DNA of 63,819 nt, counting the filler, from Reclinomonas americana ATCC 50394 (Eukaryota), in the NCBI GenBank assembly GCA_048213135.1. It is 5 parts of 2 records of this genome, joined end to end, with 100 filler letters (N's around TTAATTAATTAA, not from the genome) between each part and the next. Parts side by side here need not be neighbours in the genome. Positions count along the whole stretch, not along the records: positions 13,839 to 36,541 come from PS015048.1; 4 more parts are not named here. One strand, given 5' to 3'. The notes beneath the pieces are model-generated. The model saw only the letters and a program-made list of their open reading frames with translations. It had not been told where the DNA came from and ran no database searches. Shown one piece after another: positions 12,314-62,669 of this stretch. The first letter of the stretch is position 1. Every line of letters begins with the position of its first letter. The translations under genes were made by a program, and so were the position numbers.

Positions 12314-15279
12314 GATCGCAGTGTTTTCAAGGCCTGGTTGCCGACCGAGGGCGATGTGAGGGACGAGCTGGCCGTGCTCGTCTGCTCGGCGCTGCTGAAC
12401 GAGCCGCGCTACTACGACAACGGCGACCTGAGTGCGCAGGCCAGCGAGATCCGCCGCGTGGCCCGTGCGTGCGCCGCCACTGAGGAGGTCGACGCCGATT
12501 TTTTGCTGTGCCTGGCGCGCTACGTCAGAGTCGACCTGGGCCTACGGGCCTCCTCGTGCTTCCTGCTGGCGCTGGCGGCTGCAGATGAGGAGTGTGCACC
12601 GCGCTGCTCACGATTTGTGTCGCACTACGTGCCTCTGGTGTGCCAGCACCCAGGCGACCTGCTGGAGCTGGCCAATAGCGTGACGGCGCTGTCCGGGCGC
12701 GACAAGTGGCTGCCGTCGTGCATTCGACGGGGCGTGTGCCTCGCCCTGCCGCGATACGACGAGTACCAGCTGGCCAAGCACAACCGCGACAAGGTCCGGC
12801 GAGCGAAGGAGCGCCAGCGCAAGGCGGCCAAGAAGCAGGCGCAGCAGCAGGAGCTGGACGCAGCTGCTGCCGCGGCGGCGGCTATGGCGCCGAAGGGCAA
12901 CAAGGCCAAGGCCAAGGGGAAGAAGGACCAGCGACAGAAGGTCGCAATGAAGGCTCGCGGCAGCATCGCGGCCATGGCGGCTCGTGCACAGGCCGCCAGT
13001 GCCGCCGGTGCAGACGGCAGCGGCAGCGGCAGTGGCAGTGGCAGTGCGCGCCAGCCGTGGACGCTGAAGCAGCTGGTGCGCACTTGCCACGCCCACGAGC
13101 CGTGGAACCTCGTGTCGAAGATCCTGGGCAAGCGCGATGAGACTACGGGCCAGCGCCTGGCACTCGCCACGCCGCAGACGTGGGAGACGCAGGTGGCGGC
13201 CCACGGCAACACGAGCGCAGTGTGGGAGGAGTTGCTGCGGGCGAACAAGTTGCCGCTGCTCGCCACCCTCCGGAACCTGCGCAGCCTGCTCACGGTGACG
13301 CCAATGGTGGACGCGAGCCTGTACCGTGCCACTGTGCTGGCTCGTCTCACCAGTGAGCGGGCGGTGGGCATCTCGCGGTTGGCGCCGCACCAGTTCCTGG
13401 CGGCCGTGCACGTCGTCGGACAGCTCGCGGACTCGGCCGAGTTGTCTGCGAGTGCCGCGGCGTTGGCGCGGGAGACGACGGAGGCGCTGGACACGGCGTG
13501 CGCGTGTGCTGCCAACCGCAACTTGCCTCAGCTGCGCGGTCGGACGGTCGTGTTTTGCGACACCAGCGGCTCCATGGGCTCGGTGTGCAACACGGGCAGG
13601 GCGACTGGCCTCGGCCAGCAGCAGCGGCAGAGAGGCCAACTGGGTGGACGTGGCAACCGTGCTGCCGGCCCCACGCACGTCACCTGCCGCGACGTGGCGG
13701 TGTTCCTCAGCCTGCTGATCAAGTTTGCCGGCGGCGACNNNNNNNNNNNNNNNNNNNNNNNNNNNNNNNNNNNNNNNNNNNNTTAATTAATTAANNNNNN
13801 NNNNNNNNNNNNNNNNNNNNNNNNNNNNNNNNNNNNNNGATTGTGAGCTGCGCGTCTTCAGCTCGGCTCGGCAGCGCGGCGAGAAGAGCCACCGGCGAGT
13901 CGACAACTTGGACAGCAACAGCATCCTCCGCAACATTGCCCGCGTGAACGCCGAGGCCTCACGCCTGGGTGGCGGCACCGACTTCCCGTTCGACTACATC
14001 ACGGGCATGTTGCAGGAGGATGCCGACGCGGTGGAGCCGGTGCAGACCATGGTCATCCTCTCCGACATGCAGTTCACCAACCTGTCGCAGTCGGTGAGCA
14101 GGTCCGGCGACCTGGCCTCCATGTTGCGCGAGTACCGCGAGCGTCGCAACCCGAACATGCTCTTTGTGTCGGTGGACCTGCTGGGCTACGCGCAGCGGCC
14201 GGAGGAGCTGCGCTCGCGCGAGCTCGGCCAGTCGCCGAACAACCTGCAGCTGTCTGGCTTCTCGCCGTCGGTGCTCTCGTTCATCGCCAACCGCCAGCTG
14301 AACCAGGTCGAGCGCATCTACGAGAGACGAGTGACGCCGGCGGAGTGCGAGGCCATGGTGGCGGTGTTGAANNNNNNNNNNNNNNNNNNNNNNNNNNNNN
14401 NNNNNNNNNNNNNNNNNNNNNNNNNNNNNNNNNNNNNNNNNNNNNNNNNNNNNNNNNNNNNNNNNNNNNNNNNNNNNNNNNNNNNNNNNNNNNNNNNNNN
14501 NNNNNNNNNNNNNNNNNNNNNNNNNNNNNNNNNNNNNNNNNNNNNNNNNNNNNNNNNNNNNNNNNNNNNNNNNNNNNNNNNNNNNNNNNNNNNNNNNNNN
14601 NNNNNNNNNNNNNNNNNNNNNNNNNNNNNNNNNNNNNNNNNNNNNNNNNNNNNNNNNNNNNNNNNNNNNNNNNNNNNNNNNNNNNNNNNNNNNNNNNNNN
14701 NNNNNNNNNNNNNNNNNNNNNNNNNNNNNNNNNNNNNNNNNNNNNNNNNNNNNNNNNNNNNNNNNNNNNNNNNNNNNNNNNNNNNNNNNNNNNNNNNNNN
14801 NNNNNNNNNNNNNNNNNNNNNNNNNNNNNNNNNNNNNNNNNNNNNNNNNNNNNNNNNNNNNNNNNNNNNNNNNNNNNNNNNNNNNNNNNNNNNNNNNNNN
14901 NNNNNNNNNNNNNNNNNNNNNNNNNNNNNNNNNNNNNNNNNNNNNNNNNNNNNNNNNNNNNNNNNNNNNNNNNNNNNNNNNNNNNNNNNNNNNNNNNNNN
15001 NNNNNNNNNNNNNNNNNNNNNNNNNNNNNNNNNNNNNNNNNNNNNNNNNNNNNNNNNNNNNNNNNNNNNNNNNNNNNNNNNNNNNNNNNNNNNNNNNNNN
15101 NNNNNNNNNNNNNNNNNNNNNNNNNNNNNNNNNNNNNNNNNNNNNNNNNNNNGAATGCCGGCACCGCAGCTGGTGCTGTCGTTGCTCGCGTTGGAGACGA
15201 GCAGGCCATGGAGGTGGAGGAGCTCGAGGGAGCAATGAGTGTGGACGAGGAGGGCGAGGCTGATGAGGCGGTCGTGTAG
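12314..15279 (+). CDS. TROVE + vWA protein of the TEP1/p80 type (5' end in gap)
   Basis: LVCSALLNEPRYY, FLLCLARYVRVDLGLR, LPRYDEYQLAKHN, WTLKQLVRTCH, LATPQTWETQVAAHGN..VWEELL..KLPLLATLRNLRSLL are TEP1/p80 TROVE motifs. The vWA domain has MIDAS DTSGSM, GGGTDFP and ILSDMQ. Frames join across the linker (13738/13839) and across the 14372-15152 gap. Confidence 0.88.
13783..13794. other. Artificial scaffold linker TTAATTAATTAA flanked by N-runs (also at 36586-36597, 56110-56121, 62571-62582)
   Basis: An identical palindromic 12-mer with stop codons in all six frames is embedded in N-runs four times. Confidence 0.95.
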
Positions 15280-17945: not shown

Positions 17946-20900
17946 ATGAGCGCGCTGGTTGCGCTGTTTGGGCGACTGGCCTCTGCGCTGCCGTCATTAC
18001 GTGGGCGGCCACGACTGGCATCGGCAGTGTCGCGCTTGCTTGGCTCGCCCACATCGACGCCCGACGAAGGTACCGTGCATGCCAATCGGGTGTGCGATCT
18101 GGCGCTCTTTCTTCCGGTCAGCGCACGCACTGTGCTGCGAGCAGGTAGGTGTGGAGGACGGCAGATAGAGAGACGGGCACTGACGCGCGCCTCCAGGCTC
18201 GGGGGTGCTCGATGCACAGACGCATCCACCAATGTCGACGGTGACGCTGACGATGAAAGTGACGGCGTATGTGCAGCATCCGCGACGCACGCTGGTGCAT
18301 GGAGTGACGACGCAAGGGCAGCAGGTGCACGTGGTGTACTTTGCGCGAATGCCCATGGGCTACATCCACAAGCAGTTCCCGCGGGATCAGCTGCGCGTGG
18401 TCACCGGGCGCGTCAAGTTCTTCCAGCCGCACTCGTGTTGCGTCTTGCCGCGTCTCGCCGGTCTCTCTATCTCTCTAACTAACTGTCTCTCTGTGTGTGT
18501 GATGCGACAGTGGTGCTGCCGATTGTGAGCATCTCACACCCGACGTATGTGGGTTCACCAGAGACGACTGCTGCTGCTGCCGCCACCGAGCCACCATTAC
18601 CCGAGTCAGCAGGCGAAGGCACACTGGCAGCAACCAAGACGAAGACGAGGAAGACGAGGAAGCAACAAAAGGCGCCAACAGAGGACCTTACTGTAGACTC
18701 CTCCTCCACAACAACATCGGAGGAGCAGCCGGTTCCAGTGTATCCGCTCACCGCCGGGCTGAAGTCGTCGGTGTTGCAGACGTTGATCCGCGAGGCCATG
18801 GATCAGTCGGTGGTACCGCATCTGCAGCGCGTGGAGTGGTTGTCGCCGACCTTGGTGTGTGAGCGACAGTGGATGTCGTTCACCGACGCCTTGCGGTGCG
18901 TGCACTTTATGGATGCGCACGGCAGCTCGAATGACGCCGCAGCCAAGGCGCAGCGCGAGGCGGCACGCTCCCGACTGGCATTCGACGAGCTCTTTGCACA
19001 GCAGTTGGCGTTCTCCGTGGCCCGACACGAGCGCATGCTGGAGGCCGACGCGCGTCAGACCCTTCAACAGAATCGTGTGACACTCAGTTTCGCTGAAGTG
19101 CAGGAACGAGTGCCGCTGATCAAGCGTGCAGCTGCCGCCCTCCCGTTTGCACTGTCGCCCGGGCAGGAGAGCGCCGTGTGCGAAATCGTGTCGGACGTGC
19201 TGCACGGAACAACGACGCGCACACCGATGTGTCGCCTCCTGCAAGGCGATGTCGGCTCCGGTAAGACCGTGGTGACGTTTCTGGCGGCCCTGGCTGCCGT
19301 GCACACCGGTGGGCAAGTGGCACTGATGGCTCCGACCGAGTTNNNNNNNNNNNNNNNNNNNNGCTGGCCTCCCAACACTTTTCCACGCTCTCCAGATTCG
19401 CCGGCCCCATTGGTGAGGCATGCTCTGGCACGCCCGCTCACCGCTCACTGCATACCCACTCTCTCTTTTAATCGCCATGAGCGCAGATGTGTCGGTGCTG
19501 CTGCTGACGGGTCGTCTCGGTGTGCGAGCACGCCGCGACGCGCTGGCTCGCATCGCCGACGGACGAGCGCAGATTATTATCGGCACCCACGCTCTGTTTC
19601 AGCACTCTGTAGTATTCCACACTCTCGCGCTGGCAGTCATCGACGAGCAGCAGCGCTTTGGTGTGCGACAGCGCATGTCGCTGACCGATAAGGGCGCAGT
19701 GCACCGCGTACACGTGCTGGCCACGACCGCCACACCCATTCCACGCACCCTCATGCTGGCGGCGTACGGTGACATGGATGTGACGCGCATTCGTGATCGC
19801 ACACGACCGCCAGTGGAGACAGTGGCGCTCACCGCCGGCCCCAAGGCCATGGAGTACGCACTGGCGCAGGTGCTGGCGGCGCTGAAGCGGGGTGAAAAGT
19901 CGTACTGGATCTGCCCGCTGATCGAGGACAGCGAGATCTCGCCGCAGCTGACGGCCGTCACCGAGCGGCGAGCGTGGCTGGAGAAGCGGCTGGCGGAGAG
20001 CTCGCCCACCACGACGGTGGCGCTGGTGCATGGGAGACTATCGTCGGAGGAGAAACAGCGAGAAATGGACTCGTTTGCGGACGGTGATGCTGCGGTGNNN
20101 NNNNNNNNNNNNNNNNNNNNNNNNNNNNNNNNNNNNNNNNNNNNNNNNNNNNNNNNNNNNNNNNNNNNNNNNNNNNNNNNNNNNNNNNNNNNNNNNNNNN
20201 NNNNNNNNNNNNNNNNNNNNNNNNNNNNNNNNNNNNNNNNNNNNNNNNNNNNNNNNNNNNNNNNNNNNNNNNNNNNNNNNNNNNNNNNNNNNNNNNNNNN
20301 NNNNNNNNNNNNNNNNNNNNNNNNNNNNNNNNNNNNNNNNNNNNNNNNNNNNNNNNNNNNNNNNNNNNNNNNNNNNNNNNNNNNNNNNNNNNNNNNNNNN
20401 NNNNNNNNNNNNNNNNNNNNNNNNNNNNNNNNNNNNNNNNNNNNNNNNNNNNNNNNNNNNNNNNNNNNNNNNNNNNNNNNNNNNNNNNNNNNNNNNNNNN
20501 CTGGTCGGCACCACGGTGGTGGAGGTGGGCATGGATGTGCGTCTCGCCACGCTGATGGTCGTGGAGCACGCGGAACGGTACGGCCTCTCGCAGTTGCACC
20601 AGCTGCGTGGTCGCGTCGGCCGCTCCGGCGATCGACCGAGTCGATGCATTCTCATGGCGTCCGAGTCGGTGTCGACGAGCTCCGAGGCCACCGAGCGATT
20701 GCGCATTATGGAGTCGACTCATGATGGGTGTGTGTGCGCGTGAATGAGAAAGGTCGCGTGTGTGTGTGGCTCATGTGATGGCAGTTTTGTGATTGCTGAA
20801 CGAGACTTGGCATTCCGAGGGCATGGCGAGGTTCTCGGAACCAAGCAGGTGTGTGAGGGGTTCGGAGGGGAGGCGGGGGGAATGGGTGTGTTTCTCATTC

Positions 20901-21581: not shown

Positions 21582-24526
21582 GACCGTGCGAGAGATTGCC
21601 ATGAACGCAGCACTTGGTGTCCGTGATTATGTTGTTGACGACGAAGACTGTGACAGTTCTGATGAGGAGGAACCTGAGGATCAGGTTGACGATGACACCG
21701 CACCCATCATCAAGTTGCGTTTGTCGTCTAACCTGTTGTTTGTACTGTGGATCCTCCACTATTATGTGACTTAAATATCGTGCTCGTCGCAGGAACCCCG
21801 AGTTTTTAAAATGTCGTTGTCGCAACCAGTCTCGCGCACCACTGCCTCTTGAGTCAACTTATGGAGTTCTGCCAACGCGAAACAATCAGCTGGGAAGAGT
21901 TCAAGAACTGTGTGAATAGTTGGTTCCTGGATATCAGTCGTCGACCTGCGGGGTAAGTCAATTATTGTCTCGTCATTGCGCAATCTCGGTAATGAGACTT
22001 GATATCGATGTTTGCTGTGGACATTGCTGTGTTCAGTTCCGTTGTTTGGGAAGTCGAGCGCGGCAATCGAAAACGAAAATGCGTTCGTTTTGAGACCAAG
22101 AAGAAGAACAAGGTGGTTCGACGATGGTTACGTTTCTTGTTGGAGAAGCGAGAGCGAGGAATGCAATTGGTCGACGCAATCGTGGACGGCGGTATTCAAA
22201 TGTTCAAGCACTTTGACATCAGCGCGACTTCGTCGATACTCCGCTTCATGAAATGGAATGGCGTCAGACTTGTCGAGAACGCCGAAGTTGTACGTATACG
22301 TGTATCTTCTGCGAGTCCACTGTTTAACCGCTGAATGCTGACTCTATTGGCGTGTGCGGTTTGCAGCGCGCAACTGTCGAGGAGTTAGCGAAAACGCGGA
22401 ATGACATCATGCACAAGATTGATGCGTTCCCGAGCAGTCGATGGAGAGCACTACGTCGAGATCTTGTTGGACCGACAGAACAAGAGCGTGCATTTGGCGT
22501 ACGCGCACATGCGCCAATGGTGGCAGCGAATCCGGTGCCCGGAGCAGATGCACCATGGCCAATCGTGGCAGTGGGTCCGGCCGTGGAGGCAGAGGCAGAT
22601 GTGCACATTGTTGTACAACCGCCGGTCGCGAATCCGGAACCCGGAGCAGGTGCACTTCTGGTGGCACCGGCAGCGGATCCGGAGCCAGTAGCAGATGATG
22701 CACCAATGGTGGCAGCGGGTCCGTTGCCCGGGGCAGATCGTGATGGCCGCATGCAGCTTTGGGCGAGGTTTCTGCGGGGCTGCGCAAACGTCGACACAAG
22801 AGCCGTTGATGAAGCGATCCAATACCTGCGCGACATCCGCGACGCCGTCGGGCCTCATGCCGACCTGGAAGGCAATGACGCGCAAGCTGCAGGTAATCAT
22901 GTTGCTGTGTTTCGCGTGCCCAACTCCAGCTCCGAATGCGTGTTGATTAACCCGAGCTCGCCGTGATGTAGGTGCAGCTGTTGCCCGTGTCGGTGCCAGG
23001 CAAACGCATCCCTCGTTGGATGCTTTGTGGAGTCGAATTGCCGGGGATGCTGCGCATAATGCAACTCTCGATGACATTTATCAGTATTTTGTTGCTACTT
23101 AAACCTCTCTTGTGCCCAGATGCACTCGTGTTCATCTGTTCGCATACGCAGGTGGGAGAGAACAAACGACCTGCAAAAGCCAGCTTCAGCCTTGCTTTTC
23201 TGGTCAGCGTGAGCGTTGTTCTACTACTGCTGGCTTTCATTCCCACAGAGAATCTCGGATCCTGGTTGACCACGACGGGGAACGGCCAAGTCTTCGTCAC
23301 AACGGGGTCCGACAACGGCGCACAAGTCACGGTGCTAGCGACCATGGTCCTGAAATTCAACGCTCTCAGAGCGCAATGGAGAAGTTTGTCGCTTACGCAT
23401 AATCTCTCCGAGTGAGTTCATTGTAATCCTTCGCGATCGTGCTAACTTTGTCCACACGGCAGTTACCATGGTGGAGAACCACGATACTCATCTCTTCAGG
23501 AACGAAACAATGCTCGACATGGATACTGAGTTGTGGCGGCTTTGTGGTGCATTGATGTTAGCTGCTCGCATCGTCTACTTTGCTTCGCGTCTGACAAACA
23601 CGTCGACTTTGTGTGAGGTTAGATGATCCCCTGATTGGCAACGCGCTTGGTTCATCGTGCACTGCATTGTGGGGACTTGGGATTGGTCCGTATAGTTGCT
23701 TTCCTCGGTTATGCTCGAGCTCAGGACCTGCTGATCAGATGTATGTCATGCAGCTATCTCTGTCATTGCAGCTGCTGCCGCGTTCTTTTGCCTTGCCGCC
23801 GAGTTTTTCTTGCTTCAGATGATTCCGTGGCGACACATTCGCACATGTTTCAAGTCGACTCCGTCACAATTGGTCAGTTACCATCTGTTTGTACTCTTCA
23901 CTTGCACGTCAGCCGTTCTTATCTGACAGTGCAATGCATCAATGCAGGGCCGCAAGTCCGGCTGCTGCTGCAACTTCTGGTCCGCGTCGAAAATGGCGAC
24001 ACATGCGACGGTATACATGTGCATATGCATATGCTACGCGCGCTGCTCTGTTTTCATTGCGGCTGCTTTGATGTACACCCGCAGACATCGCTGATATTGT
24101 CACTGGCCCTGGCGTGCTTCAACGGTGCGTTTGGTAGCTGTCTAGTGGAAGATATTCACTCGCAGATGTGCCTGACTTGATGAATTCCTAGTTCTCATCT
24201 GGCTTGCAATCGCCTTCTTCGGTCGTCCCCCGTTGAACAATAACATCTCCAAGGTCATCAACTCGCTGCTTCCGGCGTATGCTCATCCGGTTGTGGATGT
24301 GGGTCAAGTGGAAATCCAGTGGCTGCTGTGGCTGGAGGTGGCCGCCGTTGGACCAATCTTCATCGCCTTAGTTGCTCACATAAAGCTCCGACGTCGCTAC
24401 TCAATCAAGAGGGCCTATGCTGCAGCGTGGAGCCATATTTCGGAGATCTTTCACGGTCACGCCGTGGCGAACAGGGACAACAATAACAACAACGGCAACG
24501 GCAATGGCAACGACGACCGCGTCTGA
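21582..24526 (+). CDS. Uncharacterised multi-exon protein convergent with the Fanzor gene
   Basis: A series of GT-AG-bounded open segments, e.g. SVVWEVERGNRKRKCVRFE..., ATVEELAKTRNDIMHKID...APMVAA repeats, and final exon ...NNNNNGNGNGNDDRV*. No family motif was recognised and some junctions are uncertain. Confidence 0.5.
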
Positions 24527-25223
24527 ATGTGCCGCGCACGTGCTTCGAATTCGAGTGGGATCCGGAGGAGTGGGTGGAGGAACGTACTGCGGCCGGTGGC
24601 CATGATTGGGCAGGATTCATGATTATTCACTGGAACGCATTGAGTGTGTGTTTGTATTCATGTGTACATATAGTGAACACAGCTGTACAGAGTTTGAGTT
24701 CCTGTATCTGTGGCCAAGCATTTTTCACTGCATGCTAGCACAGGCTGATATGTGGAGGCAGCGATGCCAACCAGAGGTGCGCAGATGGGCTGCGCAGTTG
24801 TGCATATGACCTACAATAGTGCGTACGCCGCAGCTGCTGCCGCAGCCTTCTTGTGGGCAGCTCGTTGATATTCACAAATTTCACTAGGGGGGCACGCGGT
24901 GAGAACACGGTTTGAAGGGCAATGGCAGCACCCCAACGAAACAATAAGTTTGGGTACAGTACCCCCGGAAGGGAAATTTCAGAAAGCAGAAAGAGAGGAG
25001 AGGGGAAAAGAAGGCAGGGGAAGGAGACAAGAGAGGAGAGATGCGTGTGAATGAAGACAAAAAAGACTTACCACACAGTTTGCTTCTGCGCAGCATGGGA
25101 GAAAAAACGGGAGTTAGAGACCGCCTCTTCCACCCATCGTTACCCCCATCAACACACACACACACACGCACACCAGGCAAAGAGAAAGGAGAAGAAGAAG
25201 AAGAACGCAACATGAGTTTGGGC

Positions 25224-27589
25224 TTACTCCTTGGAAAATGAGTTCAAGGGTCTCTTGGACCGCTTGTTTGAGTTGGATCGGCGCTTACTCGCCGATTGCG
25301 ACCGCCCAGGTACAGATGGGGCACTCGAACCCTCACTGCGAACGACGGAAGGGAGACAGCAATGAGGACAGCCTCAACACAAAAGAGCACAATGCATGGG
25401 AGGGATCACATCCAGTGGCACGCACGGTTGCTGTTGGTGCTCGACAAGTGTTCCCGGTCGCGATGCAGCTGCAGATTGCAATTGAGCTCGACCAGTTCGA
25501 GCTGCAATCCTGGCCGATTGCCTCGTCCCTGCGGGCGGTGACGGCTCCACGACCTGCGCGAACACGTGTTGGAATGTACAAGAGAGGAATGAGAGCATTG
25601 AGAAGAGTACCTCCTCCTCCTCCTCCCCCTTCCACTCTCCGTCCTCCTCCTCCTCCTCCTCCACCACCTCCTCCTTCTTGTTCTTCCTCTTCTTCTTGGT
25701 CTTCTCCGACGTCGACTTCTTGGTCCGCTTCTTCTTCGGCTCTGTCTCCTCCTCGTCCTCCTGGTCCACCGTTGATCGGGGACGCTTGCAATTGGCGGGC
25801 AACTGCAGCGGCACACTCTGCAGCACCAAGCCGCTCAACAGAATGTTCCATGCACCGCGAGCGTCACGGAACACCGTTTTGCCTTGCAGCGGGCACCCCT
25901 CAGTGTTGCACACGATCGTCTTGTCGCTCCCCACCTTCTTCCCTGTTCCGCAACCCGGGCAGTGCATAGTTGATCCCGCCTCCGAGAGTGATAGCACCAC
26001 CAGCTCAACGAACGACGCATCCTGTTGAGATAGCACTCTCGTCTTGGCAGCCTGTGCATGCACAGACACGCGGAGAGAGAGAAAGAGAGTGAGTGAGACA
26101 GAAATCAAGTCAACTCAGTCCGTCAGCCGCTGATACACGTACACACCAGTGATTCCGCTAGCCTCTTCACCACACCAAAGCCAGAGTATTGCATCTTGAG
26201 CACAGTGTCGCGTCCGATGCATCTGTCCTGCCACTCTTTGCGATAGTCGACCCACTGTCGTTTCTGCATCATGTGCGCCATCTCCTTTGAAAATGGTGGC
26301 AGAATGAGAACCGCATTGATAATGGCCGCTCTGCGTGGTTGATATGCACAAGTGAATGAGACACCACCGCTTGCAATCACCACACCATGCTCATGCACTC
26401 ACTTGCGCACAAAGGAGACTGCGTTGTTGTAGGCAGCGGCCCGCAAACGGCGCGTGATGTTCGCCAGTCGCCGCTCAATCAACTTGCGTGCCCGCGCGTC
26501 CACAATGCGACCATACGACGCAAGCTTCCGCTGCAGCACGGACTTTTGCTGGAGTAGCGGGAAAATGACACGTGCCGCCCAATCCTTTCCATGCTCGTCG
26601 ATCGCCCAGTTCACGCCAGCACCTGTGCGCGTGACATGGCGTGAGAAATGGTGGAGAACGGGGAGGGGGAGGGAGGGGAGAGAGGAAAGGAGATGAGGGG
26701 AGAACAGCATGAAGAAGAAGAGGCCTAGGGGAGGTGATAAGAGAGAGAGAGAGAGAAGAGAGGAGAGAGGAGAAGAGGGAAGAAATGAGAAGAAACGAAA
26801 CGGAGGAAAGGCAAGGGAAGAGAAGAGGAAAGGAGAGAAGAGGAGAGATGAGCGGCGGAGTTAACAACAAGAAGAGAAAGATGAAGAAGAGATGGCGGAA
26901 AGAGAATAGAAAGAGAACGAAAGCGTATTAATAGATGAGAGAGAGAGTACGGAGGACAGGAGTGAACGATGAGAGGAAATGAGGAGAAGAAAAAGGGCGT
27001 CATTCATGCAGTCAATCCTGACACACGTACACACGCAAGAGAGCACAAAACTTCTCTGGTGCACACTCCCACATCCACTCTGCCTCCCCGCCCCATGAGA
27101 ACAACATACCAACGGTTGCCACTGTGGCGAATCTCCGCACACCATAGTCAACGCCCGACGCACAGAGCGTGAGTGCCTTCCAGATCGCTGAACCCACGTC
27201 GCACGCTTGATGGCTACCGCCGCACCGGTGAGGCGGCGATCCACACACCAAACACCGCGATACGTTGCCTTTAGCGTCGACAAAAAACGCAAAGCACATT
27301 TCATCGCTGTCAGATGCATCGGCCTCCACCGCCGGCTCCGCATCGCCGCCACCTCCACCTCCACTTCCACTTCCACTTCCGCTGCCCTGGTCATCTCCAC
27401 GTGCACCTCCACCTCCACCTCTACCTCCTGCACCACCACCGCTGTGAATGTCGGGTGGTTTCGCGCGCCTCCGTTTGCGACATCGTCCCTTGTGGCGTGC
27501 ACGCCGCCGCACTTTCGGCTGTGCTGCGTTCATCGACGAGCGGAGATTCGCCAGAACAGAAAGAAGTGTTCGCCGGGCCTTTCGCGATT
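25224..27589 (-). CDS. TnpB/Fanzor-family RuvC nuclease module (exons 27589-27110, 26622-26403, 26330-26147, 26051-25611, 25553-25426, 25335-25224)
   Basis: RuvC-I is GVDYGVRRFAT (Asp codon 27147-27149), followed by a bridge-helix region LQQKSVLQRKL...RLANITRRLR. The RuvC-II strand is VLILPPF with a relocated Glu in LSEAGSTMHCPGCG (Glu 25980-25982). The zinc finger is CPGC...CNTEGC, and RuvC-III is FRDARGAWNILL (Asp 25863-25865). Splice phases are consistent across all these introns. The tail has basic NLS-like runs (PKKKRTKK, KKKRKNKK). Confidence 0.9.
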
Positions 27590-28171
27590 CTGCACGCATG
27601 CATCAGCACATCTGATCAGTGAAACAAGTTGTCCCACACGACGTCAAGCTCACCATGCATTCGCTGCTGCCGTCGCGCAGCATAGTAATGCTGCTTCCAC
27701 GTAAGCTGGTCGCCGCGACGGGGGGCATCTGGATATGACGAGGCATGGGCGCAGCCACTTGCAAAGGCGACACCGACGTCACCGCCACCGGCACCGCGTC
27801 GATCGGCCTCTGTGCGCGGAACTTGGACGAACCGCGTCGCGCAGTCGAGGATGCCACCGACCAAGTGTGCCATGGCGCCGATTGCATCGCCGGCGACTGT
27901 GCACACCCATGCAACACGACATATGCATGAGTTTCGCAACAGAGAGATAAAGAGAGAGAGAGAGAGAGAGATTGTTGGTCACCTTCGCCGAGAATCCCAT
28001 CGGCATCCATTGCCACGCCATCGTGCATCTTGTCAGTGCGACCCCACATTAACAGCGTAGAACGTTCACTCTCGAGGGCATCTGCAATCGCGGCATTGGA
28101 TGAGCACAGAGACAGAGGGGAGGGAGAGCGAGAGAGAGGACATGGAGAAGACAAAATGACAACAAGAGTGT

Positions 28172-28221
<50 letters not shown>

Positions 28222-31200
28222 GAGCGAGAGCAAGAGAGAGAGAGAGAGCGCAACTGTTGATCCTGGTTGTTGTGGAGTTATACTCCTCAAGACGAATAAC
28301 GGCAGTTTTGATAGCCGCAAACGACCGCAGGTCCCAGCGATGGGGATTGCGTTCCAGCAATGTCCGCATCCGCTCGGGCTCCAACGCAGCCTTCCGCAGC
28401 GCCAGATCCAACAACCGAAAACTGTCGCGCTCACCGTCGTCGCTGTCGAAACGGAACGGCAACTCGCCGAGTTGTGACTGAAGCACGTTGACCGGTAGGG
28501 TGGACAACACGCCCACGATGCGATGCATCGCGCCGATGATGGTTGTTGACGATGCGAGGAACCCTGCTGGAATCGCTTGCCGCAGCTGCGCGACAGCAAA
28601 CTGAACCGGCCACGACTCCGCTGCCCTCGGCGCTTGTTGCGACGAACTGGCGGCCGAGGTTGCGGCACCCCGTTCATCGCCATCGTCCGCCTCCATCTCC
28701 TCGGTTGCGCGATTAGCTGCCCAGGACCGGTACCGCAATTCCTCGACAAGAATGCGGACGGCCTCGTCGACGACGTTGCGCGCGTATTGGAGAACCGTGG
28801 CATGGTATGCCGACACACGGGCGCGACACGAAGTTGCAGCAGGCGACTGGCCCTTCTGTGCGTCTCGCATCGCACACGCCATGTCCAGACGGTAGGTGTT
28901 CGACTCTCGCACTACAATGTCGTAATGAGAGGAGAACGACGATCTGCTGAGTTGCTCCAGAACATCGCGATGATCGTCACTCGCGCCCTCCTGGATCACT
29001 TCTGTCGCCAACGCACGCGCACACGCCAGGACCTTGTAGGTGACAAGCAAAGGGTCTCGCAGCAGCGCTGTCGCGCTGTGTTCACAGAAGCCGGATCGTC
29101 CAAGTGCATCCAGCGTCGTCAAGTATTGCTGCACCGTCCAGTCCGCAGCCTCCGGATGTGAGCGCGGCAACAGGTGCTCGCGAACAATCGGGTTCCACAG
29201 CGGCGAGTCCATCAATTGCAACTCAAGAGTGGGCGGCGGCGAGCCCGGCGGCCGCTCTCGCAATTCACGCTCCAAGGCCGACGCAACAGGAGTGGCCTGT
29301 GCCAGTGGTATCGCTTGTTTCTCGACAGNNNNNNNNNNNNNNNNNNNNGGCGAGTGGCAATGCCTCATCCACCGACGACGACGCCGACGACGACGACGAT
29401 TCGGCATCAGAAGACAATCGCGACGAGCTGGTTCCAAAGTCTGACAAGGCAGAGACAATGGCGGCCGATGCGACGGCTTTGGTGGAGGAACAAGATCAAG
29501 ATGACCTGCAGGCGGATCTTGAGGCCGACATCAGTGACGAGGAGACCGACCGAGATGGTGCGTGAACACGCATGTTAGCTGGCAGTCGACAGTCGTTCTA
29601 GATCTGAAAACCTCCTCACCTTGCGCAATTGCGCAGATGCGAGTGTTGTCGGAGATGGCCGGCTGTACGTCGCTGAATGTGATCAGCTGGCGAGAATCCA
29701 CAAGCTGCGACACCGATTGTGTCCCTCTCTCGTCGATGTGGTGCGATCTGTTGTTCAACGGTTGCCCGTGCGTGACGACGCTCCCAAGCTTAATCAAGAG
29801 GAGAAGGGAAAACAAGCATCCGGATCCACTACAGTGTCGGCCGTGGATGCGATTGCCAACATCGCCGGCATCGTGGCGAACGCGCTGGAGACTCAATTGA
29901 AGGAGGCTGCCACACGCTTGACGGTTGAAGCTGCCGCCGCCGTCGACGACGTGCCTGTGGAACGGATCGTGGAACAATTCGACTGGCTTCTGATCCAAAA
30001 TCTCGTTGCGGCAGCACCTTTGGTGACAGAAGCGGGTGCGCATGCCATGAGTGCTGGCAGTCACGGTACCGGTCGCGACATGGATGTCGATTGTGAATCG
30101 GATGCACCAAGATCACCTTCACCCTCGGCCTCGGCCTCTGAATCGCACATGGAATGCGACGGCGATGACGACAGCGGCAGTGGCGCGGCCGGCGACGACG
30201 ACGCAATGGAGGAGGAGGAGGCCCATGAGGAGGAGGAGGAGGAGGAGGAGAAGGAGGAGGAGGTGGTGGTGGTGGAGGAGGGTGCCGGTGCCGCTGACGA
30301 CGGTGATAGCGCAGCCATGGCCAGTAGCGCAGCTGGCCATGGCGCTGGTGTGGTCGAAGCGCCAGCAGCTGCGGTGGTGGCACCACAAAAAGGCGACAAT
30401 GTCACTCTTGCAGCAAAGCGAGGTACGAGCAACATGTTAACTGCAGAGATGAGATGAATGATGCACTCACTGTCTCGTGTCTCGCAGTGGAACGCGCATG
30501 TGCTTCTGCTGCGCAGGTGCTGCTTTCTCTCGAGTGTTCCAGTCGAGCATGCGCGAGACACGCTGTCGCCTCCTCACTCATGCGAGCGACNNNNNNNNNN
30601 NNNNNNNNNNNNNNNNNNNNNNNNNNNNNNNNNNNNNNNNNNNNNNNNNNNNNNNNNNNNNNNNNNNNNNNNNNNNNNNNNNNNNACTTTCAACGAGCCG
30701 ACAAAAGATTCTATGATATCATGAGCGATCGAGTGCACGGCATGAGTGAGATGCATTCACCAAGAACGACATGGAACTGGCTTGTTGCGCAACTCAGTCT
30801 GTCAAATGACTCATCGAGGGCCCTGCAAGCAGAGGTCAAGCACGACAGCAACCGGTCGGACGAGAATGCTGCTGCAGCTGCGTTCGCACTCTGCTGCAAT
30901 TGCAAGTCACGTTCTTGTGTGTGGATGGCTGACCNNNNNNNNNNNNNNNNNNNNNNNNNNNNNNNNNNNNNNNNNNNNNNNNNNNNNNNNNNNNNNNNNN
31001 NNNNNNNNNNNNNNNNNNNNNNNNNNNNNNNNNNNNNNATGATAGAGAGTGTGAGCGGCGATGTCGTCGTGCAAAAGAAACATGCAAACTCATCAACAAA
31101 CCATTGAAGATGTCCTGTGCCACGAATGCTCGCTGGACGCACTCAAAAAACGCGTCTCGCAACGACACAAGCACACTCGTNNNNNNNNNNNNNNNNNNNN

Positions 31201-34200
31201 GACCTTCGTCAATGTCTCCGAATCGGGCGCCTTGCCTAACAGCGAATCGAGGAGATGGGTTGCGGCTTCCTGAGCAATGGTGAGCTCGGACTCATCGTCA
31301 GAGGTCCAGGGAATAGCGAGAATGTCGGTGACAGCAATGTCGAACGCTGTACAAAGAGAGTGAATGCATGCAAAAGTGGATACTCAACCAAACTTGTCGA
31401 CGCGACATTACTTACCTACTCTCGCTGTTTCGTCCTCCTCCTGCAGCTGTTCCTCCTCCTCCTCCTCTTGTGCCTCCTCTTGCTCCTCCTCCTCTTCTTC
31501 CTCTCCATCATCTTCTTCCTCTCCATCTTGCTCCTCCTCTTCTGCAGCTTGTGCTACAGCAACCATGCACAGACAAGTCAAGGAGGAAAAGCTTGTGAGC
31601 ACGACACCAAACCTGCATGACAACAGCAGCGCTGCTTGCGACTCACCCCCTGCAGCTGCCCGCACGCGTCGGCGGCGCGTTGGAGCACAGATAATGCACA
31701 AGTGCAACCACCGATTCAACACGGTCACTTCCTCGAGTTGGCAACATCCCGGCCTCGCGCTCGCCGACTGATCCGCGGGCAGCAGGACCAGAGAACTGTT
31801 CGACAAGCTCGTCAAAGGGTGGTCGAACGCCAAAGCCGACCATGAACGCGTCCAATTCTGCGGCATACACGGCAGCTCGCTCTTCGGCAGCGACACCACC
31901 GCTTCCGCCATGTCGACGACGAATGGTGAGGCACTGAAGGTACCGCACGAATCGCGTCCACACTTGCTGAGCGTCACAAGTTGCGTTAAAGGTCGGATGA
32001 ATCGTATTCTGAATCGCACAACATGCACAGTCAGTCACAATACCCCAACGTGCAAGAACGAGACGCAACAGCAACCGACCAGCAGATCGCGCTCAACATC
32101 GTGCAAATCCTGTTCTCCGAGCAGAATGAGCACTTGAGTTAGAGGCGGTCGGCTCTCGGCGTTGCCGTCTTTGTCGCCAGCAGCGACGGGGGCGGGGGCG
32201 GCAGCAGTGGCGGCGACAGCAGGGGCGGCAGCAGTGGATGCGACAGCAGCTGCCGAGTCGACATGTACGTCGGTAACGCGAAGTTCCGAATTCACGCTCT
32301 TCTGCTTCTTCGCGCCTTTCAGCTTCTTCGCCTTAATTCGCACAGTTGGCGGCGTGCCGCGCTCGGCACCGCGTGCGACTGCGCGCCCCTGCGTGTGTTC
32401 GGCACCAAGCGATGACTGCGAAATACTATTGGAGAACACTCGCACGCCATGTAGATGTGCGTTGGAGACACTGCACAACACAACAGAAAACAGTGAGAAA
32501 TCAAAACCGTACGCGTTCAATGCACTGCATTGTAGTACGCAACAGCAGCCTGCCATTGTCACCAATGTGGAGAGCGACAAGGAGGTAGCGACCACGGCTA
32601 TTCCTCGCGAGGAAATGCGCCGCGTCAGCCCCACCATCGAACACGAAGCCACCTTGTGTGATGCTGTTCATGGAATGCACAGTCAGACTCTCCACAGCGT
32701 GAAGAGCACACATCGACGCATCACGATCCCCTCGCGCACCGCACAGAATCGTCGGTGCCGCTCTTTCCGTGGCCGGGAGAGAACGTGACTGCTTTCTCAT
32801 CAATACGTATTTTCACGCGCCGCGGAGTGCTGGAAAAATTAGTGAGCCCGACTGATACACTGTGTGTGTCAAGTTGGTGAGAATGGTGCAAATGGAAATG
32901 CGCTAGCGCTAACCAAGCGTACCCCTTCGATCCTTTCTTCTTGTTTCGCGCGTTGGTTGCGGCTGTCTTGGCAGCAGCACGGCATTCCATGCCAATTGCA
33001 AGCTGCTCGAGCATTTGTTTTATACCCGTCGGTGTGATCTTCGCGACCGCGAGAGGCGACTCGCTGCACAGAAAAATGCATGCAGAAGAGTTGGACAATG
33101 CAAGAAAGCCACAAACACTCTCTCACGCTCTTCTCATCCTCTTCCCAGGCATGCAGCAGAGAGTAAATGTTGACATTCAGAAGCGTGGTTGTAGAGAACA
33201 AAACAAAGTGACGAGAGGGAGAGGGAGAGAGATAGAGAGGGAGAGGGAGGAGCGAGAGGAAGGGAGGTGTATGATAGAGGCGCTGGCCGGCATGGAGGGA
33301 GAACAAAAAACAAAGTGACGCGTCGACGGGAGAGAGAGAGAAAGAACAGAGAGGGAAAATAATACAATGGACGCTTGAGATATATATCGATAAGAGGAGC
33401 TAAGCGAGAGAGAGAGAGAGAGAGAGAGAAANNNNNNNNNNNNNNNNNNNNNNNNNNNNNNNNNNNNNNNNNNNNNNNNNNNNNNNNNNNNNNNNNNNNN
33501 NNNNNNNNNNNNNNNNNNNNNNNNNNNNNNNNTCGTCCTCTGAGCTGCGATTCTGCCATCCCTCTCGTGTCACCACTTGCCTCTCATCTCCACCCCTCCC
33601 GCCTCTAGAATGATGCGTACCTCAAGTCGTCGACGTCGAGACGCACACCAACCGCGAGGGAAAACTGACCNNNNNNNNNNNNNNNNNNNNNNNNNNNNNN
33701 NNNNNNNNNNNNNNNNNNNNNNNNNNNNNNNNNNNNNNNNNNNNNNNNNNNNNNNNNNNNNNNNNNNNNNNNNNNNNNNNNNNNNNNNNNNNNNNNNNNN
33801 NNNNNNNNNNNNNNNNNNNNNNNNNNNNNNNNNNNNNNNNNNNNNNNNNNNNNNNNNNNNNNNNNNNNNNNNNNNNNNNNNNNNNNNNNNNNNNNNNNNN
33901 NNNNNNNNNNNNNNNNNNNNNNNNNNNNNNNNNNNNNNNNNNNNNNNNNNNNNNNNNNNNNNNNNNNNNNNNNNNNNNNNNNNNNNNNNNNNNNNNNNNN
34001 NNNNNNNNNNNNNNNNNNNNNNNNNNNNNNNNNNNNNNNNNNNNNNNNNNNNNNNNNNNNNNNNNNNNNNNNNNNNNNNNNNNNNNNNNNNNNNNNNNNN
34101 NNNNNNNNNNNNNNNNNNNNNNNNNNNNNNNNNNNNNNNNNNNNNNNNNNNNNNNNNNNNNNNNNNNNNNNNNNNNNNNNNNNNNNNNNNNNNNNNNAAC

Positions 34201-36104
34201 ACGGGGGGAAGCATCCAGCGAGACACTACCATCGTCGCCGGCAACCACAGCCGTCTTCGACAAGGCAAGTATCGAAACGACGCCAAGCATAGCCAATGTG
34301 GGACGACTGAGGGAGCCGATGTGGGGCGAGAGAAGCCGCATGAAATGGCAGGCGGACCGGAAAAACGACGAAGGACTCTTGGTAAGCTTGCTGACAATGG
34401 CGGCTGCGTCAATGACATTGGAGACGCCCATCTCCGGCACCGGCGACGCGGCAATCTCCCCTCCTGATTGACTCGCTCTGATATCGATCACACCGGTTTG
34501 TTCAAGCTGTGGTGGGACGCATGCAGCTGCAGTGATGAGCGACACCAAGACAGACTATATAGCAATTGCTAGACAATCTCTACATGCGCGCACCCAGCCA
34601 TTGAATGTCGACCGCGAATCCTCATCTATGTAGCCGCTCTGGCGAGCACAATCGATGCAAGTCATCATGAACTGAATGTCACCAGCACACATCCCGTGCG
34701 ACAGGGTGTACGGTGACATGAAGCATTGCGAGCTGCGGGAGACTGCCGACACCAGACGCTCGAGCACACAGCGCGCGACAAATGCTCGCGCGTCCCCGTC
34801 ACCACTCAGAGCTTNNNNNNNNNNNNNNNNNNNNTACGTACAAGAAAAAAAGTAAGTTGTACTGCAGGACAAAGACGTCAGACTACGTACTATCTCGCAC
34901 ACGCACCAAGCAACGATGCACCGGTCGTGCCCCTTTTGCACACCGCGGCAAGCCTCACGGAGGGCACCGGCAGCACCACCGATCGATTTAGCATCGAACA
35001 CAGGCATGCCCCACTTGCGGCGCTCAGCTGCCTGATCCTTGCTCGCCTCCAGTGCCTGCCGCATTCTCTCGACGTGCTCATAGGCCACAAACTCCTCGCA
35101 CAATAGGAGGGCAACCAGCCAGTTGGCGTCCATCGTACCGAGAGCACTCTCGACCAATTCGGCGACGCGTACCGAGGCGTCTTTGAACGCATTGATGATG
35201 CTTGTAAACGCAATGTCGAGGTCTTGCAGGTATGCCGTCAACTGCGCTCCGTGTTGCTGCTGTTCAGGGCCATCACTGCGGACCAACAATCCTGATTAGC
35301 ATCGGGTGCTGAGACGACTTCTCGCAGCGTGCTCACCTCACACGCGCACGTACGTGTACGCACAGCAGGAACAGCTGTACCATCGATTGCGCCAGTGTGG
35401 GGTACAGGGACCGCTTGGCACCACGCGGTTTGCCAGTAGGAAGCAGCACGAAGGGAAGCGCTGGTGGTGGGAACAATAAGCGAGTGGTTTCCTCGTCGTG
35501 CTCCCACCCGTCTTGCTTGAGGAGACCTGCACGCACGAATCATGCAACACACACGTACATGTGTCAGAGCGCGTAAACATGTGCACACACATGAACGCGC
35601 TGCCGCAGCGGCGCTCACCTTTCGAAAAGTAGGCTTAAGGTCGAAGATCAAAATGTGTGCGACACGACACCACAGTGTCGCTGAGCTCAGCGTACAAGCC
35701 GCCTCTTTCGCACGCCGACGACGCAATGCTGTCGACCTCAGCCCTCTGTGAACGTCGGTTGGCGCGCGCCGGTGTGAGTAAGACGCGACATTGCGCGCGC
35801 AATTCGCAGCGAACTCGACACACACCACCATCGATATGCACGAGCTGTCAGAGAGCATGTGTAAGCACTCGTCCTCGCCTTGGCCCGGGGTGAGTTTGAG
35901 TGCGGCGACAACGGTGTCGCAAGACAGAGTGGCGAGCGTGTTCCTCATCGCACCCGCTGCCAGCGCATCAACTGTTTTGGCAACGTGCAAGAAAGAAGAC
36001 GCGTTCACCGGTTGTACATCGAGATCGGCGTCGGTGCCCTCATCATCATCATCATCATGAGTGCGTGTGTCTGTGTCTGTGCTGCGAGACCCAGACGCGC
36101 TCAT
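27590..36104 (-). CDS. N-terminal ~2,000 aa of the same Fanzor-like gene (segment 29349-30590 is on an inverted contig)
   Basis: Exons 29328-28255, 28081-27983 and 27896-27654 splice in phase into the RuvC-I exon with no gap. Upstream contigs join in frame (30686->29349 KV|ASGN; 31201->31180 TKV|TSVL; 34198->33670 PRV|GQFS). TnpB-like motifs are KRSLYPTLAQ (~35387-35416), TPTGIKQM..AATNARNKKKG (~33035-32930) and HFLARNSRGRYLL (~32620-32580). A few junctions need a 1-nt adjustment or an alternative splice site. Confidence 0.62.
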
Positions 36105-36786
36105 TGCGCACACCCAGTGCGCGCGAAGTCGTCCTGTAGTACTCTCGTCGGTTTGTCCGAGGCGTGCGGCAAGTTGCGGAGGGAGAGGAGAGGGGAGAGG
36201 GAGGAGAGAGAGGGAGGAGAGAGAGAGGGATCCGGAGGAGAGAGAGAGAGAGAGAGAGAAAAGACAAGGAGATTGCTTGTGAGAGAGAAAGAGAGAACCA
36301 TCATGTACGCGACGAGCTCGCAGTTGCAAAGTCGCTTATCCTCCCGGCCACGACAACATGTTGGGTCAAGCTTAACAAGCACAGTTGTATTTCTTCATTC
36401 ATGGTTCTTCTTCCTCTCTCTCCCTCCCTCTCATTCTCATCATCCCACCCCTTCGTTTCCTCTTACAAAAGAACACATGTACACCGCAGACACAGACACG
36501 TCCACGAAACAAAGGCAATGTCTGTCGACAAATTAAAACAANNNNNNNNNNNNNNNNNNNNNNNNNNNNNNNNNNNNNNNNNNNNTTAATTAATTAANNN
36601 NNNNNNNNNNNNNNNNNNNNNNNNNNNNNNNNNNNNNNNNNAGTCACGACGACGCAAGAGTGGATGATAAATGAAAACAAAAAAGTGAAAACGCAAAGAA
36701 GGAAGAAAACCCCCAAGTGAACAGAAAAAACACACCACACAACCGTGCCACCGCCACCCACACCACACCACACCACACAGCGGTGT

Positions 36787-56065: not shown

Positions 56066-56165
56066 NNNNNNNNNNNNNNNNNNNNNNNNNNNNNNNNNNN
56101 NNNNNNNNNTTAATTAATTAANNNNNNNNNNNNNNNNNNNNNNNNNNNNNNNNNNNNNNNNNNNN

Positions 56166-62480: not shown

Positions 62481-62669
62481 ACGCACGCAGAAATCACCAT
62501 GGTCATCATCATCATCATCATCTGCGNNNNNNNNNNNNNNNNNNNNNNNNNNNNNNNNNNNNNNNNNNNNTTAATTAATTAANNNNNNNNNNNNNNNNNN
62601 NNNNNNNNNNNNNNNNNNNNNNNNNNATTGGCTCGTGACTGACGAACACGACTCTCCTCTTGCTCCAGG

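Follow-up and report, generated by a model that had tools for sequence, protein, structure and literature searches.

Fanzors are RNA-guided nucleases of eukaryotes that derive from TnpB. Published ones average 620 amino acids (aa) and can be intron-rich, according to the portions of PMC10530073 consulted here; the longest entry in the consulted part of its Data S1 has 1,686 characters, and the replacement of the RuvC-II glutamate by proline or glycine, together with an alternative Glu, is treated there as a rearranged Fanzor active site. In the literature searched, with PDF supplements lying outside that search, no Fanzor longer than 2,000 aa was found described. Here we analyze a window of 63,819 nucleotides (nt; the whole stretch of DNA considered, filler included) from Reclinomonas americana ATCC 50394 (GenBank assembly GCA_048213135.1), in which a candidate Fanzor gene lies on the minus strand between positions 25224 and 36104. 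Our favored interpretation, to which we assign a probability of about 0.6, is that of an intron-rich Fanzor gene of the eukaryotic TnpB/Cas12 branch, with a predicted RuvC domain at the 3' end of a spliced open reading frame (ORF) that measures no less than 1,011 aa, and possibly ~2,500 aa. The locus is a real Fanzor gene, divergent in sequence and rich in introns, whose active site looks intact and whose unrecognizable N-terminal region is unusually long. This region measures at least 617 aa in the predicted frame, and the odds that it reaches ~2,000 aa are roughly even.

The RuvC nuclease half and the gap-free gene model

As read from the predicted splicing, the last ~400 aa comprise a complete split RuvC domain with a zinc-ribbon (TNB) insert (Table 1). 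Both catalytic aspartates (those of RuvC-I and RuvC-III), the alternative glutamate and the four cysteines of the zinc ribbon are all intact. A proline occupies the canonical Glu position of the RuvC-II strand, and the alternative Glu, with a putative catalytic role, is located ~74 residues downstream here rather than ~45. The RuvC-I motif GVDYGVRRFATV resembles GIDPGVRTFATV and GIDPGGRTFATV of published Fanzors in the consulted part of Data S1 (PMC10530073). The string RTFATV occurs 23 times in that file; six peptides of the gene were absent from it, its content being 50% cluster representatives at 400 characters per cell.

The relationship to TnpB is most readily recovered with the exon that encodes the zinc ribbon and RuvC-III (exon a). 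An 87-aa fragment of this exon matches the NCBIfam family NF040570 (guided_TnpB; E 8e-4, positions 341-387 of 389) and Pfam PF07282 (E 6e-4). A tblastn search of plasmids with the exon recovered 87 records (best E 1e-4), the best matches being haloarchaeal TnpB genes; a TnpB or 'transposase' annotation lies under most of the 25 plasmid matches listed, with six rows unannotated there. In a protein atlas, 30 of the 30 nearest clusters carried PF07282 (score 0.95), and a local hidden Markov model (HMM) of haloarchaeal and other TnpBs had exon a as its sole match among the 1,296 six-frame ORFs of the window (E 1.8e-6). No homologous proteins of greater length were found for exon a, nor any match in viral contigs. 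A hit of the same exon to the tandem-repeat adhesin 4p99 (E 9e-6) was taken as spurious: each repeat alone gives an i-E of ~9 and the cysteines are unaligned.

Profile-profile comparison with hhalign, in which the spliced protein was set against a profile of 16 diverse TnpBs, reaches beyond this exon: the alignment (probability 92-94%, score 58.9-60.6, 185 columns, 24% identity) runs from GIDlG to RuvC-III, placing GVDYG on GIDlG and RDARGAWNI on aDvNaA.NI. None of 40 shuffles scored above 26.2, as against 58.9 for the real sequence, and exon a alone scored 51.9. When only the segment from RuvC-I to RuvC-II was shuffled, the alignment stayed within the zinc ribbon and was extended in none of 30 cases. 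Searches with the single RuvC-I and RuvC-II exons gave no TnpB, either by tblastn against plasmids or by hmmsearch; the latter, run with TnpB HMMs and eight sub-HMMs, recovered the zinc ribbon only and had no power for RuvC-I/II or the N-terminal half. The profile matches and the hhalign alignment thus bear out the order proposed for the nuclease half by an earlier note on this DNA, namely RuvC-I, bridge helix, RuvC-II, zinc finger and RuvC-III, interrupted by introns.

This domain closes a gap-free gene model spanning 29326-25224 on the minus strand, in which eight predicted exons, joined across seven GT..CAG introns that are all in phase, yield one spliced open frame of 1,011 aa, along an exon path that departs from the simple longest-ORF path. 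The junctions f/e1, e1/e2 and e2/d each retain phase 1, at sites that include gtgacc/cacag and gtgagc/tgcag. The frame is predicted to end at the stop codon 25226-25224 when the last 90-nt intron is spliced, and otherwise at an in-frame stop at 25376-25374. The earlier note had called the part 29328-25224 solid, at ~990 aa and with the same stop at 25224, and our model agrees with it. Across the gene as a whole 16 predicted introns are fully sequenced, all of them GT..CAG, 34-487 nt in length and in phase, the CAG ending having been in part a criterion of their selection.

RuvC-I stands at residue 617 of the 1,011-aa frame, leaving ~617 aa ahead of its Asp. This region includes a helical exon (exon f) of 357 aa and a linker that is successively K/R-rich, Gly-rich and acidic. 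The stretch 29326-28112, to which exon f belongs, had no match among 1.84 billion representatives, and the exon itself had none in the protein atlas or in metagenome contigs. AlphaFold2 renders it as all helix at low confidence (pLDDT 43.8), and its beginning, ..KQAIPLAQ.., bears a fainter likeness to the start of TnpB. Basic stretches resembling nuclear localization signals (NLS), as judged by eye, are found at PKVRRRARHKGRCRKRRRAK, KKKRTKK and KRRSNSNKRSKRP.

Upstream exons and the placement of WED and REC

In the longer form of the favored interpretation, the same gene would begin at an ATG at 36104 and reach the gap-free part by way of six further gaps and an inverted contig, for a total of ~2,500 aa; ~2,000 of these match nothing known. 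The earlier note had proposed such a chain from 36104 to 25224. One part of that proposal stands: exons bounded by GT and AG can be chained over this distance, and all pieces sum to 2,482 aa (within ~1 aa, plus whatever the gaps hold), close to the claimed ~2,500 aa. A single gene of that length is plausible; it would need the flipped contig and continuity across seven gaps, and one of the junctions, 35619/35526, is out of phase. Pfam and NCBIfam searches with the upstream ORFs and exons returned only chance-level rows, and no internal duplication was found within the protein.

Among the upstream pieces, x4 and x5 are split by one in-frame TAG, which, by eye, a GT..CAG intron of 57 or 84 nt could remove. 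The seven-exon y chain carries the peptides that the earlier note had labeled 'REC-like' and 'second WED half', as well as a linker rich in K and an acidic stretch. The contig at 29349-30590 is open on the plus strand, with two canonical introns (79 and 65 nt) in phase, no start or stop, and frames that run into both flanking gaps. It is flanked on both sides by minus-strand coding sequence, and its GAG runs lie on the plus strand, those of both flanks on the minus strand. The contig is probably inverted in the scaffold; a real inversion and a misplaced paralogous contig are alternatives. The flip proposed earlier is thus favored by three plus-strand exons open at both ends, while no read contig fixes the orientation.

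The window is eukaryotic DNA interrupted by 39 N-runs. Four of the gap pairs, at 13739-13838, 36542-36641, 56066-56165 and 62527-62626, each consist of 44 N, TTAATTAATTAA and another 44 N, TTAATTAATTAA being a six-frame stop linker. These joins are artificial: the window strings together scaffolds that are separate in the assembly, and two genes with a linker between them are not real neighbors. The scaffold of the Fanzor gene occupies 13839-36541 (PS015048.1); it ends at 36541, so the true 5' end of the gene may be absent from it.

The seven gaps inside the gene bear on a tentative and somewhat unlikely alternative, by which the region would hold two or more genes: one or more orphan genes upstream, and a separate Fanzor of ~1,000-1,400 aa with its WED and REC in 30590-27110, where exon f would serve as a helical REC of increased size; the long chain would then be an artifact of joining across gaps. 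Any of the seven gaps could conceal gene ends, the 617 aa before RuvC-I suffice for a WED and a large REC, exon f is all helix (albeit in a poor model) with its ..KQAIPLAQ.. start, and such a protein would lie nearer to the average published length given above (PMC10530073, in the portions consulted). The sequenced stretches, however, contain no unavoidable stop, start or terminal exon; all junctions within contigs can be bridged in phase except 35619/35526; the frames are open into the gap 29329-29348 from both sides and where the inverted contig ends; and hhalign finds no WED or REC in the initial 600 aa of the gap-free chain either (probability 3%).

The earlier note had placed WED and REC in the exons 35526-32513, on the strength of peptides that are indeed present on the minus strand: KRSLYPTLAQ in the ORF 35539-35336, TPTGIKQM..AATNARNKKKG and AVTFSPG/VKIRI in the ORF 33122-32724, and HFLARNSRGRYLL in the ORF 32812-32504. 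KRSLYPTLAQ resembles the RLYP[ST]xEQ start of TnpB and Fanzor proteins at the level of a motif only; the corresponding string is KIRLYPSVEQ in a published Fanzor that shares the RuvC-I motif, and YRLSPSKEQ in our own TnpB consensus. The strict pattern [LIVM][YF]P[STN]..Q occurs once in the 96,804 aa of six-frame ORFs against 0.13 expected. KRSLYPTLAQ, LQDLDIAF and GMPVFDAK moreover follow the order of the TnpB consensus (..RLAEAF.., GRPKFKKK). When loosened, two of the three patterns are no commoner than chance predicts (5 occurrences where 6.0 are expected, and 2 where 1.7 are). The patterns were composed after the sequence had been seen, and among 16 real TnpBs they match only 2, 1 and 0.

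No test supports this assignment. Pfam and NCBIfam give nothing for the exons 35526-32513; the TnpB HMM scores -4.2 bits on x2 plus x3; and hhalign probabilities are 0.2% for x2 plus x3 and 0.5% for the y chain, although the best local match of the former sits on the expected REC helix of TnpB (P 0.31). A construct from which the putative insertion had been deleted scored 58.7, compared with 59.4-61.3 for eight control segments and 58.7-58.8 for four shuffles; its alignment extends no further than theirs, always starting at RuvC-I. These tests used prokaryotic TnpB profiles and detect WED or REC in no other part of the protein either; having little power on so divergent a protein, they are weak evidence against the assignment. 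Structure prediction, which the earlier note had suggested as a check, was run with AlphaFold2 on two exons only: x3 is all helix (pLDDT 55.8), and this model and that of exon f are too poor for comparison. Because the WED/REC assignment is unsupported, so is the proposed split of the two lobes by an insertion of ~1,400 aa, and the giant form with such an insertion stays a hypothesis, one that these results do not refute.

In this layout one ~2,500-aa protein would have its first WED strand at 35420, followed by REC, the second WED half at 32830-32513 and the ~1,400-aa insertion before RuvC-I, which we consider doubtful. The likeness of KRSLYPTLAQ, the order of LQDLDIAF and GMPVFDAK, the hhalign placement on the REC helix, the excess of the strict pattern and the segment 32829-32513, which appears beta-rich by eye, speak for it. 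Against it stand the lack of any significant result with the HMM, hhalign, the insertion-deleted construct, Pfam or NCBIfam, the after-the-fact patterns that fall to chance frequency when loosened and are rare in real TnpBs, a motif spacing unlike that of TnpB, the out-of-phase x1/x2 junction, and a second hairpin, MCFAFFVDAKGNVSRCLVC, which adjoins RuvC-I and is maybe the last WED strands. The latter placement of the hairpin could hold with either layout. A simpler layout is possible, in which a long N-terminal extension precedes a core with its WED and REC in 29326-27110.

Copies, counter-evidence and genomic setting

Public reads contributed four contig pieces from two DNA runs of one sample, none of which bridges a gap or orients the contigs. 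One is identical to 28572-29056 in exon f. A second is ~98.6% identical over 27166-27604 (exon d) with indels of 6, 3 and 3 nt, all in-frame, and three synonymous and three non-synonymous changes; the 25 unlike letters past 27604 are, by their look, presumably sequencing adaptor rather than genomic sequence. A third is ~93% identical over 31865-32348. Its indels, 8 nt of inserted sequence, are restricted to the predicted intron 32079-32009, where 4 substitutions lie as well; in the exon 32008-31647 codons are changed synonymously in 6 cases and non-synonymously in 2 (one combined by hand), and the K-rich exon 32415-32080 shows 2 synonymous and 8 non-synonymous changes. The exon model is supported by these copies, since the indels of the ~93% copy are confined to a predicted intron and those in exon d are in-frame. 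They point to paralogs or diverged alleles under some constraint, and not to a lone domesticated gene. The suggestion of the earlier note that the gene is possibly domesticated finds no support: the diverged copies in the public reads fit a multi-copy element or alleles. A literature search on domesticated Fanzors yielded nothing relevant. No other copy of the gene was found within the window, nor any transposase domain in the ORFs scanned between 25374 and 36335.

The diverged copies also feed an improbable alternative, namely that the locus is a decaying or chimeric one, either the relic of a Fanzor element or a scaffold patched from paralogous copies, encoding no working protein. Contigs of different copies could have been co-scaffolded, the inverted contig, the out-of-phase junction and an implausibly short intron would fit with this, and the GC content at third codon positions (GC3) is below that of neighboring genes. 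Yet 1,011 aa stay open over eight exons with the catalytic Asp, the alternative Glu and the zinc-ribbon Cys intact, the chains of 479 and 365 aa stay open as well, and the differences of the second copy avoid exon frameshifts and are mostly synonymous in one exon. For the Fanzor exons (25374-29326) GC3 is 0.52-0.71, versus 0.74-0.85 in the five neighboring gene segments measured, which may reflect a foreign or mobile origin, or low expression.

Several observations count against the interpretation we favor. With regard to the gene model, the splice junctions are predictions throughout: the sites were picked by hand, GT and AG are common, and in-phase chaining is supportive rather than proof; hand curation was adopted because an automatic finder based on codon usage, although it recovered three known introns, had put exon d in the wrong frame. 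Seven N-runs fall inside 25224-36104, and continuity across them is not readable; the probable inversion of the contig 29349-30590 is a further weakness of the assembly. The donor at 35619 is in phase 0, whereas the acceptor at 35526, in the frame of KRSLYPTLAQ, needs phase 1, and the y-chain intron 31646-31613, at 34 nt and beside a GGGGG run, is doubtful. The upstream ~2,000 aa have no homolog in any database searched and nothing ties the region functionally to the nuclease, and no WED or REC is detected by profile anywhere in the protein.

As for the nuclease half, the 87-aa fragment of exon a misses the curated cut-offs of both families (20.3 against 26.3 bits for PF07282 and 18.8 against 100 for NF040570), which are set for whole proteins, the query being that exon fragment only. 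The RuvC-I to RuvC-II part has no significant hhalign match to TnpB without exon a, and the upstream RuvC motifs are thus supported by collinear extension and not alone, since the remainder fails to align when exon a is omitted. Phmmer searches with single exons against PDB gave no Fanzor, TnpB or Cas12 chain. No terminal inverted repeats were found other than GAG/CTC low-complexity runs, a 401-nt stretch that spans the stop and runs on past it folds no better than shuffles (z-score -1.16) and gave no guide-RNA-like structure, and Rfam has no family at threshold in 23000-37000. An Rfam row for MIR408 (26.1 bits, where the gathering score is 64) was taken as chance.

By analogy with other Fanzors, the basic stretches would direct the protein into the nucleus, where a guide RNA would be bound and DNA cut at the RuvC site; the second, diverged copy in the reads suggests membership of a multi-copy and probably mobile unit, not a single domesticated gene. 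The fullest version would be a catalytically intact, multi-copy Fanzor of ~2,500 aa whose TnpB-type N-terminal RNA-binding elements (35526-32513) and RuvC lobe (27155-25842) stand well over 1,000 aa apart with unmatched sequence between them, an independent, intron-laden eukaryotic enlargement beyond the size of Cas12, and this we regard as quite doubtful. If at least 617, perhaps ~2,000 aa of unrecognizable sequence do precede an intact RuvC, this would amount to a eukaryotic enlargement of the core akin to the path to Cas12, it would supply new domains with RNA, chromatin or partner proteins as conceivable ligands, and it would show that divergent nucleases can be sought in a protist lineage so far under-sampled; were the long form an artifact of assembly, an ordinary but divergent new Fanzor would remain.

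Elsewhere in the window (Table 1), the exon of the tRNA-guanine transglycosylase has a best identity of 59% in a collection of 5.8 billion proteins; because so conserved an enzyme reaches only this value, the organism is taken to be without a close sequenced relative in that collection. Since a linker intervenes, the fibronectin-type gene past 36642 does not truly adjoin the Fanzor gene. An ORF at 43638-44759 was considered as a reverse transcriptase and dropped, Pfam being without a match. Long (CT)n/(GA)n microsatellites lie in or beside the introns of the Fanzor gene at 28175-28250, 27945-27970, 33205-33430 and 36190-36300, and those of the gene are always CT-rich when read in the coding orientation.

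Table 1. Predicted parts of the Fanzor gene, its motifs, and other features of the window (exons of the gene in coding order)
Feature	Position	Strand	Remarks
x1, candidate first exon	35619-36104	-	ATG 36104-36102; 162 aa; acidic N-terminus; strong donor AAG/gtgagc
x2	35337-35526	-	contains KRSLYPTLAQ; joins x3 in phase, 61-nt intron gtgagc..ccgcag
x3	34891-35275	-	128 aa; contains LQDLDIAF and GMPVFDAK
x4	34558-34812	-	x4 and x5 between gaps 34815-34834 and 33671-34197
x5	34198-34554	-	
Exon end	33621-33670	-	..LAVGVRLDVDDLR/gtacgc; on 138-nt island between two gaps
y chain, 7 exons	33063-32923, 32829-32725, 32663-32513, 32415-32080, 32008-31647, 31612-31416, 31346-31201	-	479 aa open
Short contig	31039-31180	-	protein-like 47-aa frame
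Short contig	30686-30934	ambiguous	249 nt; open frame on both strands
Contig 29349-30590, 3 exons	29350-29557, 29637-30422, 30488-30590	+	365 aa; helical, acidic
Exon f	28255-29326	-	357 aa; orphan, all-helical (low-confidence AlphaFold2 model)
Exon e1	27983-28081	-	
Exon e2	27654-27896	-	
Exon d	27110-27589	-	K/R-rich PKVRRRARHKGRCRKRRRAK, Gly-rich and acidic linker, beta-hairpin-like MCFAFFVDAKGNVSRCLVC, RuvC-I GVDYGVRRFATV
RuvC-I GVDYGVRRFATV	27155-27120	-	Asp codon 27149-27147
Intron d/c	26623-27109	-	
Exon c	26403-26622	-	bridge-helix region; then 72-nt intron
Exon b	26147-26330	-	RuvC-II strand LILPPF at 26308-26291; then 95-nt intron
Exon a	25426-26051	-	LSEAGST, zinc ribbon, RuvC-III, then K-rich and acidic tail
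Alternative Glu in LSEAGST	25982-25980	-	
Zinc ribbon CPGC..CNTEGC	CPGC at 25961-25950	-	CxxC..Cx4C; all four Cys present
RuvC-III RDARGAWNI	25868-25842	-	Asp codon 25865-25863
Optional last exon	25224-25335	-	ends in KRRSNSNKRSKRPLNSFSKE; preceded by in-phase 90-nt intron gtgcgt..tcgcag
Queuine tRNA-ribosyltransferase (tRNA-guanine transglycosylase) exon	5612-6508	+	PF01702 in all matches listed
TROVE-domain protein	12314-13738	+	E 5e-40
DEAD/Helicase_C helicase	18483-20097	+	two ORFs
Fibronectin type III repeat protein	37052-39124	-	
EF-hand protein	50613-51308	+	

Comparison with Fanzors, TnpB and Cas12

Among described proteins the closest likeness is to the 'family5' Fanzors with the RuvC-I signature GIDPG[VG]RTFATV, as they appear in the consulted part of Data S1 (PMC10530073): the RuvC-I motif is identical to that of one entry at 9 of 12 positions, a proline takes the place of the canonical RuvC-II Glu and a Glu precedes the (Y)TS..C zinc ribbon, RuvC-III follows RD..[GA]A.NI, and basic, NLS-like stretches are present. 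In that same portion, and by comparison of motifs rather than alignment of whole proteins, family5 entries are ~480-490 aa long with ~200 aa from RLYPxxEQ to RuvC-I, whereas the region before RuvC-I here would be at least 617, perhaps ~2,000 aa. Unlike those entries, the gene described here has seven predicted introns in its gap-free part. We take mimivirus-type Fanzor2 to be the studied example to which family5 is linked.

The gene shares with Fanzor1 (SpuFz1, GtFz1), according to the consulted portion of PMC10432273, the standing of a eukaryotic TnpB homolog, and Fanzor1 is likewise extended relative to TnpB, in its N-terminus, REC and RuvC. SpuFz1, by the same portion of that source, has 638 aa in a single ORF on a ~2.1-kb element with inverted repeats; the present gene has many predicted introns, no inverted repeats were found at it, and it would be far larger. 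With the prokaryotic TnpB, an accessory RNA-guided nuclease of IS200/IS605 and IS607 elements, it has in common the collinear order of RuvC-I, bridge helix, RuvC-II, zinc ribbon and RuvC-III; it differs in that the TnpBs of the compared set are ~380-430 aa, intronless and mostly possess the canonical RuvC-II Glu, and in that the N-terminal half of TnpB is not detectable in it. Compared with Cas12, the gene is eukaryotic, contains introns, has no CRISPR context, and its added sequence is without similarity to the REC of Cas12; what it would share with that family is the idea of a TnpB core growing by added helical domains, and its size range of 1,000-2,500 aa overlaps that of large Cas12 proteins.

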